From a virus, in the UHGV virus genome UHGV-0260700: DNA of 5,875 nucleotides. One strand, given 5' to 3'. Shown piece by piece: positions 1 through 5,875 of the stretch (the stretch's first letter is position 1; every line of letters starts with the position of its first letter). The translations under genes were made by a program, and so were the position numbers. The notes below the pieces were generated by a model. It made no database searches, had not been told where the DNA came from, and worked only from the letters and a program-made list of their open reading frames with translations.

Positions 1-206
1 GGTTTCATGGGCAGAGCTTTGATCTTAATAAAACGCAAGTTCAGACTCACCGTGCGAGATTACGAAAAATCGGTATTGATATTGCTCAAAAATGCAATAT
101 TGCTAAGTTCTCTCCGGTTATCATGAAAGAAAGCCGCGAAATTCATGTTTCACAATGCGTTATTCCAGACTGGTATATTAAACCTTCTCATTTACGTGTA
201 GCTTAA
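1..206 (+). CDS. 3' end of replication initiator gene (gII, with nested gX), partial, start outside window
   Basis: Frame starting at position 3 is open to TAA at 204..206 (67 codons, ends ...DWYIKPSHLRVA). Assigned by synteny only, immediately upstream of the gV-position gene; I did not recognise the sequence itself. Confidence 0.55.
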   Translation, partial: FHGQSFDLNKTQVQTHRARLRKIGIDIAQKCNIAKFSPVIMKESREIHVSQCVIPDWYIKPSHLRVA

Positions 207-222
207 AACAGGAATATTAATT

Positions 223-540
223 ATGTCTCACTACGGATTATTTGTTAAAGGTAAAATGCTTGGTTCGCGCCAGCGCAATAAGATGAATAGTGATTTAGTT
301 TATAATGAAATTGGCGTCGGCATGGAAAAGCCTGATGGTTTTGGCGGCACGAAAACAGAACAATTAATTATTCGTGTTTCTTCTTCTCTCGTTAAGGCTG
401 GCGTAATGAATCAGGCTAATAGCCTTATTGGTAAACTGGTTCAGGTTCCTGTCTATGCTAAAGCATGGTCTTTTGACGGAAAGGATGGCATTACATACAA
501 CCTTTCTAATGATGGTGGTATTAGCGAAATAAAGGTTTGA
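223..540 (+). CDS. Putative ssDNA-binding protein at the gV position (105 aa)
   Basis: ORF 223..540 with AGGA 9 nt upstream of ATG; sits between the replication gene end and gVII/gIX/gVIII as gV does in Ff phages. Longer than Ff gVp (87 aa) and no similarity to M13 or IKe gVp that I can see; function is by position only. Confidence 0.55.
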   Translation: MSHYGLFVKGKMLGSRQRNKMNSDLVYNEIGVGMEKPDGFGGTKTEQLIIRVSSSLVKAGVMNQANSLIGKLVQVPVYAKAWSFDGKDGITYNLSNDGGISEIKV

Positions 541-542
541 CT

Positions 543-629
543 ATGGATGATGTTATTCAGGTTTTGATAGCGTCTGGCATCGTTATTTCTTTTGGCCTCG
601 GCGCGATTACTGCGGGGGTCTTTCGTTAA
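543..629 (+). CDS. VII: Minor coat protein pVII-like (28 aa, MDDVIQVLIASGIVISFGLGAITAGVFR)
   Basis: Not in the ORF track (too short). ATG at 543 three nt after the gV stop, AAGG upstream; small hydrophobic peptide like M13 pVII (33 aa); stop TAA 627..629 overlaps the next start. Confidence 0.6.
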   Translation: MDDVIQVLIASGIVISFGLGAITAGVFR

Positions 630-724
630 TGTATATCGTTTATTTCTTCGGGGCTTATACCTTTGGTTTTGCCCTTTTCTATGCGGTCGGTTCATTTAAA
701 TCATTTTCTGACCGATTAATGTAA
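629..724 (+). CDS. IX: Minor coat protein pIX-like (31 aa, MYIVYFFGAYTFGFALFYAVGSFKSFSDRLM)
   Basis: Not in the ORF track. ATG 629..631 overlaps the gVII stop as TAATG; hydrophobic peptide ending ...DRLM, compare M13 pIX ...FTRLMETSS; stop TAA 722..724. Confidence 0.6.
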   Translation: MYIVYFFGAYTFGFALFYAVGSFKSFSDRLM

Positions 725-743
725 CCTTAATGGAGTTATTTCT

Positions 744-986
744 ATGAAAATTCTGTCTACTGTTAAATCTAAAGTTGCTCTTGCTTCAACTGCGCTTTTT
801 GTTTCTGCAAGTTCTTTTGCGGCTGACGGCGCTACAGGCGGTACTGATTATGCAGGTCAGGCAATGGACGCTTTGTTGACTCAGGCAAATGATCTCATTG
901 GTAAAGTATGGCCTGTTGTTGTTGCTGTAGTTGGCGCAGGCCTGGCTATTCGTCTTTTTAAAAAGTTCTCTTCCAAAGCAGTTTGA
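744..986 (+). CDS. VIII: Major coat protein pVIII precursor (80 aa)
   Basis: GGAG 8 nt upstream of ATG; signal peptide ending SFA followed by an acidic amphipathic N-terminus, a hydrophobic core (VWPVVVAVVGAGLAI) and a basic C-terminus RLFKKFSSKAV, the last matching the IKe coat protein C-terminus and close to M13 (KLFKKFTSKAS). Confidence 0.92.
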   Translation: MKILSTVKSKVALASTALFVSASSFAADGATGGTDYAGQAMDALLTQANDLIGKVWPVVVAVVGAGLAIRLFKKFSSKAV

Positions 987-1001
987 TTTCCATTTTACAC
1001 A

Positions 1002-1020
1002 GGGGCAGATTCTGCCCCTT
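1002..1020 (+). terminator. Hairpin terminator after gVIII
   Basis: GGGGCA(1002..1007) / TGCCCC(1013..1018) stem with loop GATTC, followed by TT; the same position as the strong terminator after gene VIII in Ff phages. The T-tract is short. Confidence 0.45.
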
Positions 1021-1037
1021 CATCTAAGCGGGTCATT

Positions 1038-2252
1038 ATGAAACGCAAATTATTAGCCCTTTTATTTATTATTTCTCCAGCTTCTCATGCTGCTATATGG
1101 GATAGTTTAAGCCAAAGCACTATGGAGGTTGATGTTTGGTCTGTAAGAAACGAGACCACACATAAACAATATATAAATTCTGATATGCTTGCTTCTGGTT
1201 GTTCTCAAGCAAAAGAAAAGGCTAACGATTTTTTCACGAGAACCAAATCAATTTTTCAGGATGTGTATCCGCCAAATGCTGAGTATAGATTAGTCCTTGA
1301 TGATTCTTGTTCGTTTAGTTTGCCACCGGGCGAAAAAGATAGCTCTTGGAGAATAGAGACTACAATTAATGCAGATGTTCAAGTTTCAGTTCCTGATGAA
1401 ACATCACCCGAACCTACACCAGAAGAAGTTTGTCAGACTAAACAACCTGAAGATGGTGTATTTAATAATGTTTTTTCTGATTCTGGCAATCGTTATATCA
1501 ATTATGATGGTTGTGAGTATGAAGCAACAGGGGTAATTGTTTGTCAAAGTGACGGTACTGTTTGTGCTGCTACGTGGAAACCAACTGGGCGTGTTTCAGA
1601 TGGTTCACATAATTCATCATCACCTGCCGATGATAATAATGATAATGGTTCAGAAAATGGTGGGTCAGAGGGTGGGGATGATGGTTCTGGCGGTGGTAAC
1701 AATAATTCAGGGGGGAGTTCTGGCGGCTCTTCATTAAGTAAGCAGGATATGATTGACGCAGTTAACTCCGGTGTATCTGGGGCTTCGTCTAATGTTGCTG
1801 ATGAGATAAGAAAGAAACTCTCTGAGCCTGACACGAGCTTTCAGGATAAAGAACATGCTGACGCGCAAAAATCTAAATACCTAAGTGATATAACTGATTC
1901 CCTTAACAATATTACACGTGGTGCTGGACGTTATGCAGATCCATCCCGTGGTGATTATTATGGGCAAGGTGATTCTGCTTTAGATAGTGCTACAAGCCTT
2001 GCAGAAAGCAACCTGGGTATTTCTAAAGATTCCAATGGGATTTGGGATTTATTTTTAAATGAAACTAATGCCTTGCCAAATGGTGATGGTTGTTCTGATT
2101 TTATTATGTTTCCCGGAGAAATTTACCAGATAGATATTCAATGCGATAAGTTGCAGTCAATTAAAGATGCACTTTCATGGGTGTTTTACTGCATGACATT
2201 TTGGTATGTCTTTACTTCATTAACATCCTTGCTTAGAAAAGGGAGTGAATAA
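1038..2252 (+). CDS. III: Minor coat / adsorption protein pIII (404 aa)
   Basis: Signal peptide [18 protein letters not shown]; internal motif [34 protein letters not shown] resembling the M13 N1 (TolA-binding) motif DRYANYEGCLWNATGVVVCTGDETQCYGTWVPIG; Gly/Ser/Asn/Asp linker; C-terminus [22 protein letters not shown]...[24 protein letters not shown] resembling the M13 pIII C-terminus. Confidence 0.92.
1590..1727 (+). repeat. Low-complexity Gly/Ser/Asn/Asp-rich linker region inside gIII
   Basis: Residues about 185..230 of pIII ([44 protein letters not shown]) encoded by repetitive ggt/ggc/aat/gat-rich DNA; this produces the artefactual ORFs on both strands in the track. Confidence 0.6.
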
Positions 2253-2593
2253 TGCCGTTCCTATTGGGTATACCTGCATTGCTTAGATTTCTTATCGGTC
2301 TTGTTCCATTATCCCTTGGATATATTGCAAGTTTCTTAGCTCGCTTGGCGACTAAAACAGGAATAATTGCCTTTGCTCTGGTTACGTTAATCACATCTAC
2401 GGTCTTGTTGTTAGTTCAATATTTATCAGAGATTACTTTTAGTAGCCTTCCTGCTGACTTTTCTCATTTAATAGCATCTGTATTACCTGATCATTTTCAT
2501 GCCTGCGTAAATGTCATTATGGTTACTCGAATTAGTGTATTGATTTTCGATTTAAAAGAAAAATTTCTTGATTATGCAAACAGGGTGATTTAA
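2252..2593 (+). CDS. VI: Minor coat protein pVI (113 aa)
   Basis: Start overlaps the gIII stop (TAATG). [17 protein letters not shown]... aligns with M13 pVI MPVLLGIPLLLRFLGFLL... over its length. Confidence 0.85.
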   Translation: MPFLLGIPALLRFLIGLVPLSLGYIASFLARLATKTGIIAFALVTLITSTVLLLVQYLSEITFSSLPADFSHLIASVLPDHFHACVNVIMVTRISVLIFDLKEKFLDYANRVI

Positions 2594-3688
2594 ATGGCGG
2601 TTCATGTAGTAACAGGTAAATTAGGCTCAGGCAAGACACTTGTTAGTGTTTCCAGAATACAGGAGAGACTTGCTAAGGGTTGTCCTGTTGCCACTAATCT
2701 TGACCTTAAATTGCATAATATGCCTATGGTTGGGCGTTATGCGAAAAAAACGCGCGTTATTCGCGTTCCTGACAAACCTTCATTAAATGATTTGCTGGCT
2801 ATTGGCATTGGAAACACATCTTACGATGAATCCCGTAATGGCCTCCTTGTACTTGATGAATGTGGTACTTGGTTTAATTCCCGCTCATGGGGTGATAAAG
2901 ACAGACAACCTGTTATTGACTGGTTTTTACATGCCAGAAAATTAGGCTGGGATATTATATTTTTGATTCAGGATATTTCGATAATGGATAAGCAAGCTCG
3001 TTTGGCGCTTGCTGAGCATGTTGTTTATTGTCGCCGTTCAGATAAATTAAACATTCCTTTTGTTGGCTCCATTATGAATTTGGTTTCAGGGGCACGATTT
3101 TCTTTACCAAAGGTACACTTTGGCATTGTCAAATATGGTGATAATGTTAATTCAATCACTGTTGATAAATGGATATATACAGGAAAATCTCTTTATTCTG
3201 CTTACAATACCAAACAAGCGTTCACAGATAATTATCCTCATGGCGCATTTTCGCTTTTGCCACCATTTATCACGCACGGTCAATTTTCTGTTCACAGAGG
3301 ATTTAATTATTATATGCGCCTCACTAAAATTTATTTTCGCAAATCGAACCGTCTTATATTAATGCTTTCTTTTTTGGCGCTGGGGCTTGGGCTTGGTTTC
3401 TGGCTCCAGTCTGGAAAGAATGTTGATGAAATCTCAGCTATTAAATCTGCTTATGCTGAACAGGCGAGGGCGGTAACGCCTGATTCGTCCAGTGACTTAC
3501 CCCGACTTTCTATTAATTCTTTTTCACAACTTGGCTTTGACGTTTCCGTTACGTTTGTTGATGCTAAAGGTATGAAATATCAGTATTTTGATTTGATTAA
3601 AGATGGTTATTCCGTTGATATTAAAGATGCCTGTCGTATTGTTATTAGAAAAGGTCGTTATTTACAGACTGTTACCTGTCAGGAGTAA
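2594..3688 (+). CDS. I: Assembly protein pI (Zot-like ATPase, 364 aa)
   Basis: ATG directly follows the gVI stop (TAAATG). N-terminus MAVHVVTGKLGSGKTLVSV with Walker A GKLGSGKT, then LLVLDECGTWFN and WFLHARKLGWDIIFL, all near-identical to M13 pI; C-terminal membrane segment present. Confidence 0.95.
   Translation: MAVHVVTGKLGSGKTLVSVSRIQERLAKGCPVATNLDLKLHNMPMVGRYAKKTRVIRVPDKPSLNDLLAIGIGNTSYDESRNGLLVLDECGTWFNSRSWGDKDRQPVIDWFLHARKLGWDIIFLIQDISIMDKQARLALAEHVVYCRRSDKLNIPFVGSIMNLVSGARFSLPKVHFGIVKYGDNVNSITVDKWIYTGKSLYSAYNTKQAFTDNYPHGAFSLLPPFITHGQFSVHRGFNYYMRLTKIYFRKSNRLILMLSFLALGLGLGFWLQSGKNVDEISAIKSAYAEQARAVTPDSSSDLPRLSINSFSQLGFDVSVTFVDAKGMKYQYFDLIKDGYSVDIKDACRIVIRKGRYLQTVTCQE
3314..3688 (+). CDS. 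XI: Putative pXI, in-frame internal initiation product of gI (124 aa)
   Basis: In-frame ATG at 3314 (MRLTKIYFRKSNRLILMLSFLALG...) just before the membrane segment, corresponding to the M13 pXI start (MKLTKIYLKKFSRVL...); GAGG about 13 nt upstream. Inferred by analogy only. Confidence 0.5.
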   Translation: MRLTKIYFRKSNRLILMLSFLALGLGLGFWLQSGKNVDEISAIKSAYAEQARAVTPDSSSDLPRLSINSFSQLGFDVSVTFVDAKGMKYQYFDLIKDGYSVDIKDACRIVIRKGRYLQTVTCQE

Positions 3689-3695
3689 TATTATT

Positions 3696-4961
3696 ATGCG
3701 CTCTGTTATTGTTGCTTTTTTATTTGCCTGTTCATTCTGCGTTTCTGCTGAAACTGTTAATTTAAATAATTCATCTGTTCGCTCATTTGTTCAGTGGTAT
3801 TCTTCAAAAACTGGCAAGCCTGTTATTGTTAATCCTGATGTTAAAGGAAACGTAACCGTATTTAATGCTGATGTTAATCCAACAAATATTGATGATTTCT
3901 TTAAGTCTGTTCTGAATGCTAACGGGTTTGTCATGCTTTCTGGCAATCCTGCGGTAGTCTCTTTGCCGTCTAAATTACCTTCACAGATGGTTTCGGGTTC
4001 CGATGATTCTGATAACCAGTCTTATGATACTTTTCCTTCTGAGCCATCTTACCAGCCAGTACCTGTGGCGCTTACGGTCAGAAATTTTAAGCTGACAAAA
4101 GTTAGATCGTCCGATGTTCAGCAACTGGTTAAAATTTATCTTGATTCTAATGGCGGTGGTAATGTCGTGGATTATCCAGGCAATAACTCGCTGATTGTTT
4201 CTGCGCCTGACGAGCTGCTGCCGGTTCTGTCCGATTTTATCAATTCTGTGGATGTTGCCCGTGACCAAGTATTGATTCAGTCGCTGATGTTTGAAACCAG
4301 CCTATCCGATGGTGTTGATTTGTCGTTTGCTGCGGGTTCTGCGTCTGGCCATAAGGTGGCGGGGGGCTTTAATACTTCTGCGCTCGGCAGTGCGCTTTCC
4401 ACGGCTGGCGGCTCTTTTGGTATTTTTGATGGTAACGTACTGGCTTTGTCTCTGCGTGCCGTTCAGAGCAATTCACGCTCTAAGGTGATTTCAACGCCGC
4501 GCATCCTTACTCAGTCCGGTCAGACGGGTTACATTTCTGTAGGTAAGAACGTGCCGTTTATCACCGGAAAGGTAACGGGCGAATCTGCCGGGGTAAATAA
4601 TCCGTTCCAGACTATCGAACGTCATGATGTGGGTGTTTCTCTCAAGGTAACGCCTGTTGTCATGGGTAACGGGCAATTAGTTCTGACTATCGACACTCGC
4701 GCCGATTCAATCAGCAATGATGACCAGGCATCCGATATTATTACTAATCAGCGCCAGATTCAGACTACTGTTCAGATTAAGGATGGTCAGACATTGTTGC
4801 TTGGTGGTCTTATTGATTCATCTTCCAGTAATGCTGACCGTTCAGTGCCTTTTATCAGTAAAATTCCTCTTATCGGCTGGCTTTTCACGAGTAAGGCTGA
4901 CAGCAATGAGCAGCGCATCATGTATGTTCTCCTGACCGCCCATATCATTCGCGCGCTGTAA
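3696..4961 (+). CDS. IV: Secretin pIV, outer-membrane export channel (421 aa)
   Basis: AGGAG 10 nt upstream of ATG 3696. Signal peptide MRSVIVAFLFACSFCVSA; strong similarity to M13 pIV throughout (VPFITGKVTGESAGVNNPFQTIER, DGQTLLLGGL, VPFISKIPLIGWLF). The track ORF from 3603 extends upstream into gI and is not the real start. Confidence 0.95.
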   Translation: MRSVIVAFLFACSFCVSAETVNLNNSSVRSFVQWYSSKTGKPVIVNPDVKGNVTVFNADVNPTNIDDFFKSVLNANGFVMLSGNPAVVSLPSKLPSQMVSGSDDSDNQSYDTFPSEPSYQPVPVALTVRNFKLTKVRSSDVQQLVKIYLDSNGGGNVVDYPGNNSLIVSAPDELLPVLSDFINSVDVARDQVLIQSLMFETSLSDGVDLSFAAGSASGHKVAGGFNTSALGSALSTAGGSFGIFDGNVLALSLRAVQSNSRSKVISTPRILTQSGQTGYISVGKNVPFITGKVTGESAGVNNPFQTIERHDVGVSLKVTPVVMGNGQLVLTIDTRADSISNDDQASDIITNQRQIQTTVQIKDGQTLLLGGLIDSSSSNADRSVPFISKIPLIGWLFTSKADSNEQRIMYVLLTAHIIRAL

Positions 4962-4965
4962 TGGG

Positions 4966-4999
4966 TTGCGGGATGGGTGCGTTAAGCCCCGTCCCGTAA
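4966..4999 (+). other. Imperfect hairpin immediately after gIV; candidate packaging signal and/or gIV terminator
   Basis: Arms 4969..4977 (cgggatggg) and 4988..4996 (cccgtcccg) pair with one T-G mismatch, loop about 10 nt; occupies the position of hairpin A (packaging signal) in the Ff intergenic region but is much shorter. Confidence 0.4.
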
Positions 5000-5039
5000 A
5001 CCATGAAGCGGCATCGTGTTTTCACCGTCTGTTTGTATT

Positions 5040-5220
5040 CTTTTACGCTTTTCTTCCTGTCTGCGTTCTCTGTGGCCTGATTCGTCCAGCAGAATGGCGG
5101 GGGTTCCCTTTAGGGTTCCGCTATTGTGCTTGACGACACGTTGCAAGATAACCTTATTGCGGGGTGATGGTTCACGCAGTGGGCCATCGCCCTGTAAAGC
5201 AGGTTTTTGTTTTTTGGTGT
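5040..5220 (+). other. Intergenic-region segment homologous to the Ff minus-strand replication origin
   Basis: 5099..5120 GGGGGTTCCCTTTAGGGTTCCG versus f1 GGGGGCTCCCTTTAGGGTTCCG; 5162..5194 GGGTGATGGTTCACGCAGTGGGCCATCGCCCTG versus f1 GGGTGATGGTTCACGTAGTGGGCCATCGCCCTG (one mismatch), followed by GGTTTTT. f1 sequence recalled from memory, not computed. Confidence 0.7.
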
Positions 5221-5252
5221 TACGTGGTCTGATACTGCGGGGATTTCCGAGG

Positions 5253-5270
5253 ATGCGCACTGGTGCGCAT
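5253..5270. repeat. Perfect 8-bp inverted repeat with 2-nt spacer overlapping the XerC arm of dif
   Basis: ATGCGCAC (5253..5260), spacer TG, GTGCGCAT (5263..5270); the arms are exact reverse complements. Confidence 0.8.
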
Positions 5271-5289
5271 AATGTATATTATGTTAAAT
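5262..5289. other. dif: dif chromosome-dimer resolution site (XerC/XerD target), prophage right attachment junction
   Basis: GGTGCGCATAATGTATATTATGTTAAAT is identical to the canonical 28-bp Escherichia coli dif (XerC arm GGTGCGCATAA, spacer TGTATA, XerD arm TTATGTTAAAT). Phage-like sequence ends here and the following DNA has host character. Confidence 0.85.
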
Positions 5290-5484: not shown

Positions 5485-5875
5485 CTATCTGGCGGCAATT
5501 ACCGCATCTGCAATTTCCACAAAACCAGCACCTCCCGGGCCACGGGTAATCCACTGCGGAGGTTTCGGGATTTGATCAAGGTAATCTGATACCGTGCTCA
5601 CTCCAACCGTATGTTCAAAGAATGAAAACATCGGCGCATCATTCGTCGAGTCGCCGCTATACAATACGGCAGAACGTTCGGCATCAATGTCGAGATCGTA
5701 AAAATCCCTGAGCACTCGTCGGGCCATAGATAACTTGTCATATTCTCCAGACCAGCCAAGAATCCAGAGATTGTTTACGGTGGTTGTAGCACCTGCTTGC
5801 GTCAATGCGTTAAGTATTAATGAACACTGATGGGCTTCTGGCGGTTTAGCAAAGGCAATGGACGTCATCCTGAAA
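5485..5875 (-). CDS. HAD-superfamily hydrolase (Cof-type phosphatase-like), C-terminal part; start lies beyond the window end
   Basis: Minus-strand ORF ending at TAG (5485..5487), open to the window edge; contains the HAD motif-IV-like YSGDSTNDAPMF. Codon usage and GC differ from the phage genes. Confidence 0.65.
   Translation of the reverse strand, partial: FRMTSIAFAKPPEAHQCSLILNALTQAGATTTVNNLWILGWSGEYDKLSMARRVLRDFYDLDIDAERSAVLYSGDSTNDAPMFSFFEHTVGVSTVSDYLDQIPKPPQWITRGPGGAGFVEIADAVIAAR

Follow-up and report, generated by a model that had tools for sequence, protein, structure and literature searches.

A divergent pilus-binding domain in the IKe-type attachment protein of a filamentous prophage

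Described relatives and the setting of gene III

The filamentous phage IKe attaches to the tips of pili, and uses pili of the IncN and IncI2 types. In its attachment protein, p3 or G3P, a first domain (D1) binds the retracting pilus, while a second one (D2) binds TolA (PMC6431161). IKe does not integrate; its relatives UPphi901 and the other UPphi viruses, also related to I2-2, integrate at dif (Shapiro & Putonti 2020, PMC7307601). The hosts of the UPphi viruses include E. coli, Salmonella, Klebsiella, Yersinia and Citrobacter, g3p is the most variable of their genes, and an amino-acid identity of 98% to UPphi901 is reported for the core genes of even distant members (PMC7307601). Infection of new hosts by UPphi901 was attempted and failed; IncI pili are suspected, and IncI plasmids were present in every UPphi901 host studied (PMC7307601). 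A further group, the PEar phages of Erwinia amylovora (Lineavirus pear), occurs as free, non-integrated phages. In the Ff phages (M13, fd, f1), the order of the domains is different: the protein begins with the TolA-binding domain, and next to it stands N2, which binds the F pilus.

The window, that is the whole stretch of 5,875 nucleotides analyzed, carries a complete block of IKe-like phage genes, from gV to gIV, on the plus strand. The C-terminal end of gII/X (frame 3, stop at 204-206) is followed by gV (223-540, PF17426), gVII (543-629), gIX (629-724), gVIII (744-986, PF19199), gIII (1038-2252), gVI (2252-2593, 113 amino acids, Pfam DUF5455), gI (2594-3688, Zot) and gIV (3696-4961, secretin); the starts of gVII and gIV were set by comparison with the genes called in a related prophage, L011. 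From gV to gIV the genes are found in the conserved Lineavirus order, with intact ORFs. A dif site, the substrate of XerCD, is located at 5262..5289 on the plus strand, 300 bp past the gIV stop, is an exact match to the 28-bp E. coli sequence GGTGCGCATAATGTATATTATGTTAAAT, and marks the right prophage junction. The block of filamentous-phage genes, with an exact dif adjoining it, identifies an IKe-like prophage integrated at dif. The locus L012 corresponds to window positions 1-5289 with an identity of 99.94%, and does not match the window beyond dif: the element is thus integrated by XerCD, and the same phage is present in different host backgrounds.

The interval between gIV and dif (4962-5261) folds, along its whole 300 bp, into long hairpins. 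Within it, positions 5053-5219 match IKe 6305-6465 with an identity of 73%; in IKe, this portion of the intergenic region contains the minus-strand origin hairpins. Another stem-loop is found at 1001-1020 (CAGGGGCAG-ATT-CTGCCCCT), between the gVIII stop and the gIII start: it lacks a clear T-run, and its position is equivalent to that of the annotated terminator hairpin of IKe (IKe 2031-2050).

The UPphi901 type is represented here by L002, a prophage of E. coli SCU-118, located at dif between hipA and ydeT and provided with GGGES repeats. Location and repeats fit the description of UPphi901, and are the features by which L002 was typed as UPphi901-like, rather than by direct comparison with UPphi901. 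Architecture, gene order and integration at dif are shared with the window, and nucleotide identity is 98% for gI, 93% for both gIV and gVIII, 76% for gVI and 70% for gV. The window differs from L002 by the absence of GGGES repeats and of the accessory genes h1 and h2 between gIV and dif: when searched by tblastn, neither the two L002 genes nor a 103-aa ORF of L011 gave significant matches in the window. The pIII proteins are only 56% identical (amino acid) overall, so that the very high core-gene identity reported for the UPphi viruses is not reached; the window phage is a relative of the published UPphi set, rather than a member.

A few observations concern the surroundings of this and related prophages. 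Beyond dif, a truncated gene for a HAD-IIB family hydrolase is found on the minus strand (5485-5868); its closest DNA matches (96%) are located in large plasmids of Citrobacter, Klebsiella, Enterobacter and E. coli, while the flank to the right of dif has no match in any E. coli chromosome. In L011, the related prophage is followed downstream by another filamentous-phage module, unrelated to it (L011:14825-21215, with Rep_trans, DUF2523 and Zot), which suggests that two different inoviruses occupy the dif region in tandem. A 7,938-bp Salmonella "plasmid" (NZ_CP140410.1) consists of UPphi-like phage genes, and probably represents a replicative form, or the assembly of an episomal phage, instead of a true plasmid.

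Parts of the attachment protein

Gene III (1038..2252, plus strand) encodes the attachment protein pIII/G3P, of 404 amino acids, followed by the stop codon. The product matches PHROG phrog_4150 over its full length (E=9.6e-146), and in a full-length alignment the pIII proteins of IKe, I2-2, PEar6 and the E. coli prophage L002 are colinear with it throughout. Positions 1092-1589, on which the preliminary description had focused, correspond to codons 19-184 of this ORF, residue 19 being the first after the signal peptide. Residues 1-18 (1038..1091, plus strand) form a Sec signal peptide, which matches the annotated 19-aa signal peptide of IKe; judging from the sequence, cleavage would take place after SHA, at residue 18.

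Residues 19-121 (1092..1400, plus strand) constitute the first domain, assigned by Pfam, PDB, AF2 and Foldseek comparisons. The Pfam model PF21443, "G3P pilus binding domain", matches residues 38-118 over profile positions 26-105 of 105, with 47.3 bits (E=2.5e-12), the gathering cut-off being 27 bits. When the PDB was searched with phmmer, the sequence of the crystallized IKe pilus-binding domain, 4eo0, was found to match residues 40-121 (E=1e-11). Among isolated phages, searched by tblastn, gene III of I2-2 aligns to query positions 21-166 (about residues 39-184 of the protein), and gene III of IKe and of the Erwinia PEar phages produces slightly shorter alignments, with E values, I2-2 included, of about 1e-30 to 1e-32. 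For the Ff phages, the match is confined to the TolA-binding part.

The same assignment is obtained from the predicted structure. An AF2 model of residues 19-130, backed by an alignment of 41 sequences, has a pLDDT of 91.7, and only its final 12 residues, those of the linker, are modeled with low confidence; single-sequence AlphaFold on residues 19-184 reached a pLDDT of 53, too poor for use, and the alignment-based model was used instead. Compared with the PDB by Foldseek, the model retrieves 4eo0 (E=3.6e-10, probability 1.00, TM 0.78/0.82, 30% identity) as the sole match at E<=0.001, the next one having E=0.3. In the viral structure library BFVD, one significant match was found, a 115-residue protein with 29% identity. 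The first domain is therefore predicted, on the basis of the model, to adopt the 4EO0 fold, shared with IKe. Taken together, the PF21443, 4eo0 and Foldseek matches indicate that it is a divergent member of a characterized family of pilus-binding domains, with which residues 19-130 align confidently. The preliminary description had regarded this domain as unrecognized, a view that is refuted by these three comparisons. It had also left the receptor specificity unassigned: this still holds, for a different reason, namely the divergence of the domain (34% identity to IKe) and not its belonging to a new kind.

The first domain is followed by a Pro/Glu-rich interdomain linker, TSPEPTPEE (residues 122-130, 1401..1427, plus strand), which aligns with the linker EPSEQTPEE of IKe. 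Here the pLDDT of the AF2 model falls to 50-60, which is consistent with domains folding independently; the two domains of IKe G3P are reported to do so by Jakob et al. (2012), the TolA site being always exposed.

The TolA-binding domain spans residues 131-186 (1428..1595, plus strand), and is recognized by both PDB and Pfam matches. The IKe TolA-binding domain, 4eo1, matches residues 125-188 (E=6e-25 by phmmer), and Pfam PF05357 is found (E=7.6e-9) downstream of PF21443 in the same protein. Residues 130-185 match fd N1 residues 4-61, both in 1fgp (E=2.3e-10) and in 1tol, the fd N1/TolA fusion (E=2e-13). The four cysteines, C132, C159, C169 and C176, are invariant in the alignment of five pIII proteins, IKe included. 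With an identity of 73% to the IKe domain, this second domain may be expected, by analogy, to bind the C-terminal domain of TolA.

The domain order proposed by the preliminary description, that of IKe, is borne out by the succession of 4eo0 (residues 40-121) and 4eo1 (residues 125-188). About 100 residues and a short linker had been described ahead of an N1-like motif, and about 103 are found (19-121), followed by TSPEPTPEE. The motif itself is present, its matches lying far above what chance would give, but had been placed too far downstream: it starts at about residue 125-131, not at 150, and ends at about 186-188, residues 150-184 being its most conserved core. The location of N1 at the extreme N-terminus in M13, given in the same description, agrees with the alignment of the motif to mature residues 4-61 of M13/fd; the order in the window thus differs from that of the Ff phages.

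A flexible linker, rich in Gly, Ser, Asn and Asp, follows (residues 187-231, 1596..1730, plus strand); it aligns with the Gly-rich regions of IKe and of L002, and is shorter than in either of them. The protein ends with the C-terminal domain (residues 232-404, 1731..2249, plus strand), the virion cap and membrane anchor, which by BLASTP is 41% identical to residues 260-434 of IKe pIII (E=5e-45), and by phmmer matches the C-terminal domain of fd in the cryo-EM entry 8b3o.

The architecture is therefore the one described for IKe G3P (Salmonella phage IKe, NP_040576; 4EO0, 4EO1), from the signal peptide to the C-terminal anchor, and it is shared, together with a first domain of PF21443 type, by the PEar phages. 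With Ff G3P, the homology extends to the TolA-binding N1 domain (E of about 1e-10 to 1e-13), the Gly-rich linkers and the C-terminal domain. The N2 domain, in contrast, is unrelated to the first domain of the window protein: homology to Ff N2 was not found in the phmmer search against the PDB, where the N2 region scores -2.8 bits. As far as annotation is concerned, the window pIII is an ordinary attachment protein of IKe type, both N-terminal domains of which belong to families with solved structures.

Types and evolution of the first domain

Similarity to the relatives is distributed unevenly among the domains. For the pilus-binding domain, amino-acid identity is 34% to IKe, I2-2 and PEar6, and 36% to the E. 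coli dif prophage L002 (55% at the nucleotide level). The corresponding values are 73%, 73%, 67% and 81% for the TolA-binding domain, and 43%, 44%, 44% and 65% for the C-terminal domain. For scale, the pilus-binding domains of IKe and I2-2 are 91% identical, and those of IKe and PEar6 54%. The family is hypervariable: when its first domains are compared all against all by BLAST, at least 14 types can be told apart at 60% identity. One of these, the window type, contains the window protein and three clusters from the protein search (P0001, P0006 and P0007). When the 57 pIII sequences from that search are compared together with the window protein, the identity of the first domain does not exceed 38% for any comparison outside the window type.

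Relative to all other aligned types, the window type features a deletion of seven residues, located in the loop that joins the first predicted strand to the second, and an insertion of one residue (YPPNAE). These two changes, together with an identity to IKe of 34%, imply that the binding surface could be quite different; to our knowledge, the pilus-contacting residues of the IKe domain have not been mapped. Four residues, W21, C55, A58 and C91, do not vary among the 41 family members compared.

The family of the first domain is narrow: when 1.84 billion representatives were searched exhaustively by HMMER, with this domain as query, no more than five proteins were retrieved at E<=0.001. A word-indexed search of proteins, with the domain alone, gave no match, a result attributed to its 5-residue word filter, while the full-length query retrieved 60 clusters. 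None of the NCBIfam models matches the window pIII. First domains of the window type were not found by tblastn in the collection of isolated phages, and the 5' half of gIII has no megablast match either in L002 or in 5,426 complete E. coli genomes.

The exact 404-aa sequence is already public, under the name "attachment protein", and occurs in many assemblies; the index of the assembly collection lists it in 110 blocks. The same name is given to deposited members of its 90% cluster, which come from six genera with one species each (E. coli, Salmonella enterica, Yersinia enterocolitica, Enterobacter asburiae, Citrobacter freundii and Franconibacter helveticus). The window pIII is thus a distinct sequence type within a known family.

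In six other pIII relatives (P0049, P0050, P0056, P0057, P0061 and P0062), found in E. coli/Citrobacter, Pantoea, Pectobacterium and Arsenophonus, both the TolA-binding domain (43-68% identity) and the C-terminal domain are conserved. Their N-terminal domains, for which a PF21443 match is not recorded, are only 15-20% identical to that of the window; these may be receptor-binding domains that have diverged still further, or have been replaced.

Within the window type, three comparisons of the first domain gave dN/dS values of 0.04, 0.26 and 0.36. Judged from these ratios, the domain is under purifying selection, as expected of a working receptor-binding domain. Between types, dN reaches 0.57 in the first domain, far above its values in the TolA-binding domain (0.15) and in the C-terminal domain (0.30); dN/dS is also higher in the first domain than in the neighboring TolA-binding domain. 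Positive selection on the first domain was considered and rejected, as dN/dS stays below 1 (0.04-0.42): the domain evolves faster than its neighbors, with no gene-wide signal of such selection.

Exchange of sequences between phages is indicated at two levels. The segment including gIII and gVI (1038-2593) is 99.5-100% identical, at the nucleotide level, to the loci L011 and L014. In the rest of these loci identity is much lower: 68% for the gII end, 72% for gV, 84% for gVIII, 92% for gI and 89% for gIV. This distribution points to a recent exchange of a gIII-gVI cassette between phage backbones. Within gIII, one of the clusters of the window type, P0007 (L015:2787-4010), is a chimeric pIII: the first and the C-terminal domains are of the window type, while the linker, the TolA-binding domain and most of the Gly-rich region correspond in type to those of the E. 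coli/Salmonella dif-prophage clusters. The dS is 2.7 in the swapped segment and 0.15-0.32 in its flanks, which places the breakpoints at the two flexible linkers, one of them being TSPEPTPEE.

The end of gII/X (window 1-209) has no BLAST match to L002, and is 68% identical to L011. The replication module is apparently a different allele from the assembly genes, a further sign of a modular mosaic.

Receptor and entry

It is highly probable that the product of positions 1038-2252 serves for attachment in a filamentous prophage which is IKe-like (Lineavirus/UPphi-like) and integrated at dif, with the architecture and, most likely, the entry mechanism of IKe. According to this mechanism, residues 19-121 would bind the tip of a retractile pilus, most probably a conjugative one, and probably other than the IncN/IncI2 pili of IKe. 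Retraction of the pilus would bring the phage tip into the periplasm, where residues 131-186, folded independently, would engage the C-terminal domain of TolA; the C-terminal domain of pIII would then mediate uncoating and entry.

With fold and mechanism as in IKe, the receptor may, instead of a conjugative pilus, be a surface filament or an outer-membrane component encoded by the chromosome, and conserved across Enterobacterales. The spread of the 90% cluster over E. coli, Salmonella, Yersinia, Enterobacter, Citrobacter and Franconibacter would fit such a receptor, as would the fact that the phage is a chromosomal dif prophage, and not an isolated plasmid-dependent phage. Yet a plasmid pilus of broad host range accounts equally well for the spread over several genera; the only characterized members of the family named in the literature consulted, IKe and I2-2, depend on conjugative plasmids (IncN/IncI2 and IncI), and the hosts in which UPphi901 was studied had IncI plasmids without exception (PMC7307601). 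A chromosomal receptor is accordingly regarded as unlikely, a conjugative pilus being preferred.

As to the kind of conjugative pilus, a first domain which, despite its divergence, still recognizes the IncN/IncI2 pili of IKe and I2-2 seems rather improbable. Fold and core residues are conserved, and IKe itself is not restricted to a single pilus type, using both IncN and IncI2. Identity is low, however, and the deletion and insertion described above include a change in the loop between predicted strands; moreover, the family comprises at least 14 types, and the pilus-binding domain evolves faster than the TolA-binding domain (dN 0.57 against 0.15). The occurrence of many types and the fast evolution of this domain form the pattern expected if types track different receptors. 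On these sequence grounds, the IncN/IncI2 specificity of IKe is not one that can be transferred to a domain with 34% identity, and the proposal of a pilus different from those of IKe is retained.

That gene III may be the decaying remnant of a defective prophage, no longer functional in infection, is very improbable. Filamentous prophages at dif are often defective; here, the UPphi genes h1 and h2 are absent, and the window does not reach the left end of the prophage. Against this, all ORFs for structural and assembly proteins, gV through gIV, are intact, with the Pfam domains expected of them, gIII is under purifying selection, and an almost identical phage (L012, 99.94% over 1-5289) is found at dif in a different host background. 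Finally, residues 19-130 can hardly be a new receptor-binding domain, unrelated to any characterized one, as the empty word-indexed search with the domain alone, the five representatives among 1.84 billion at E<=0.001 and the absence of a NCBIfam model might suggest, given the PF21443 match above gathering score, the matches to 4eo0 both by sequence (E=1e-11) and by structure (TM 0.78/0.82, probability 1.00), and the alignment with IKe, I2-2 and PEar6, with W21, C55, A58 and C91 invariant.

A wider proposal can be advanced, tentatively and with slightly more doubt than trust. The window-type domain may represent a receptor specificity not used by the filamentous phages characterized so far, directed to another conjugative pilus or to a chromosomal filament; PF21443 domains may be swappable cassettes, recombined at the linkers among dif prophages; and the type of the domain could then predict the plasmid or pilus.

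Filamentous prophages of the window group occur frequently in Salmonella, E. coli, Yersinia and Citrobacter, and their value lies in receptor biology. If each type of first domain maps to one conjugative pilus, it is plausible that the family provides a ready source of plasmid-targeting specificities, and that the domains found in a lineage indicate the plasmids that lineage has met.
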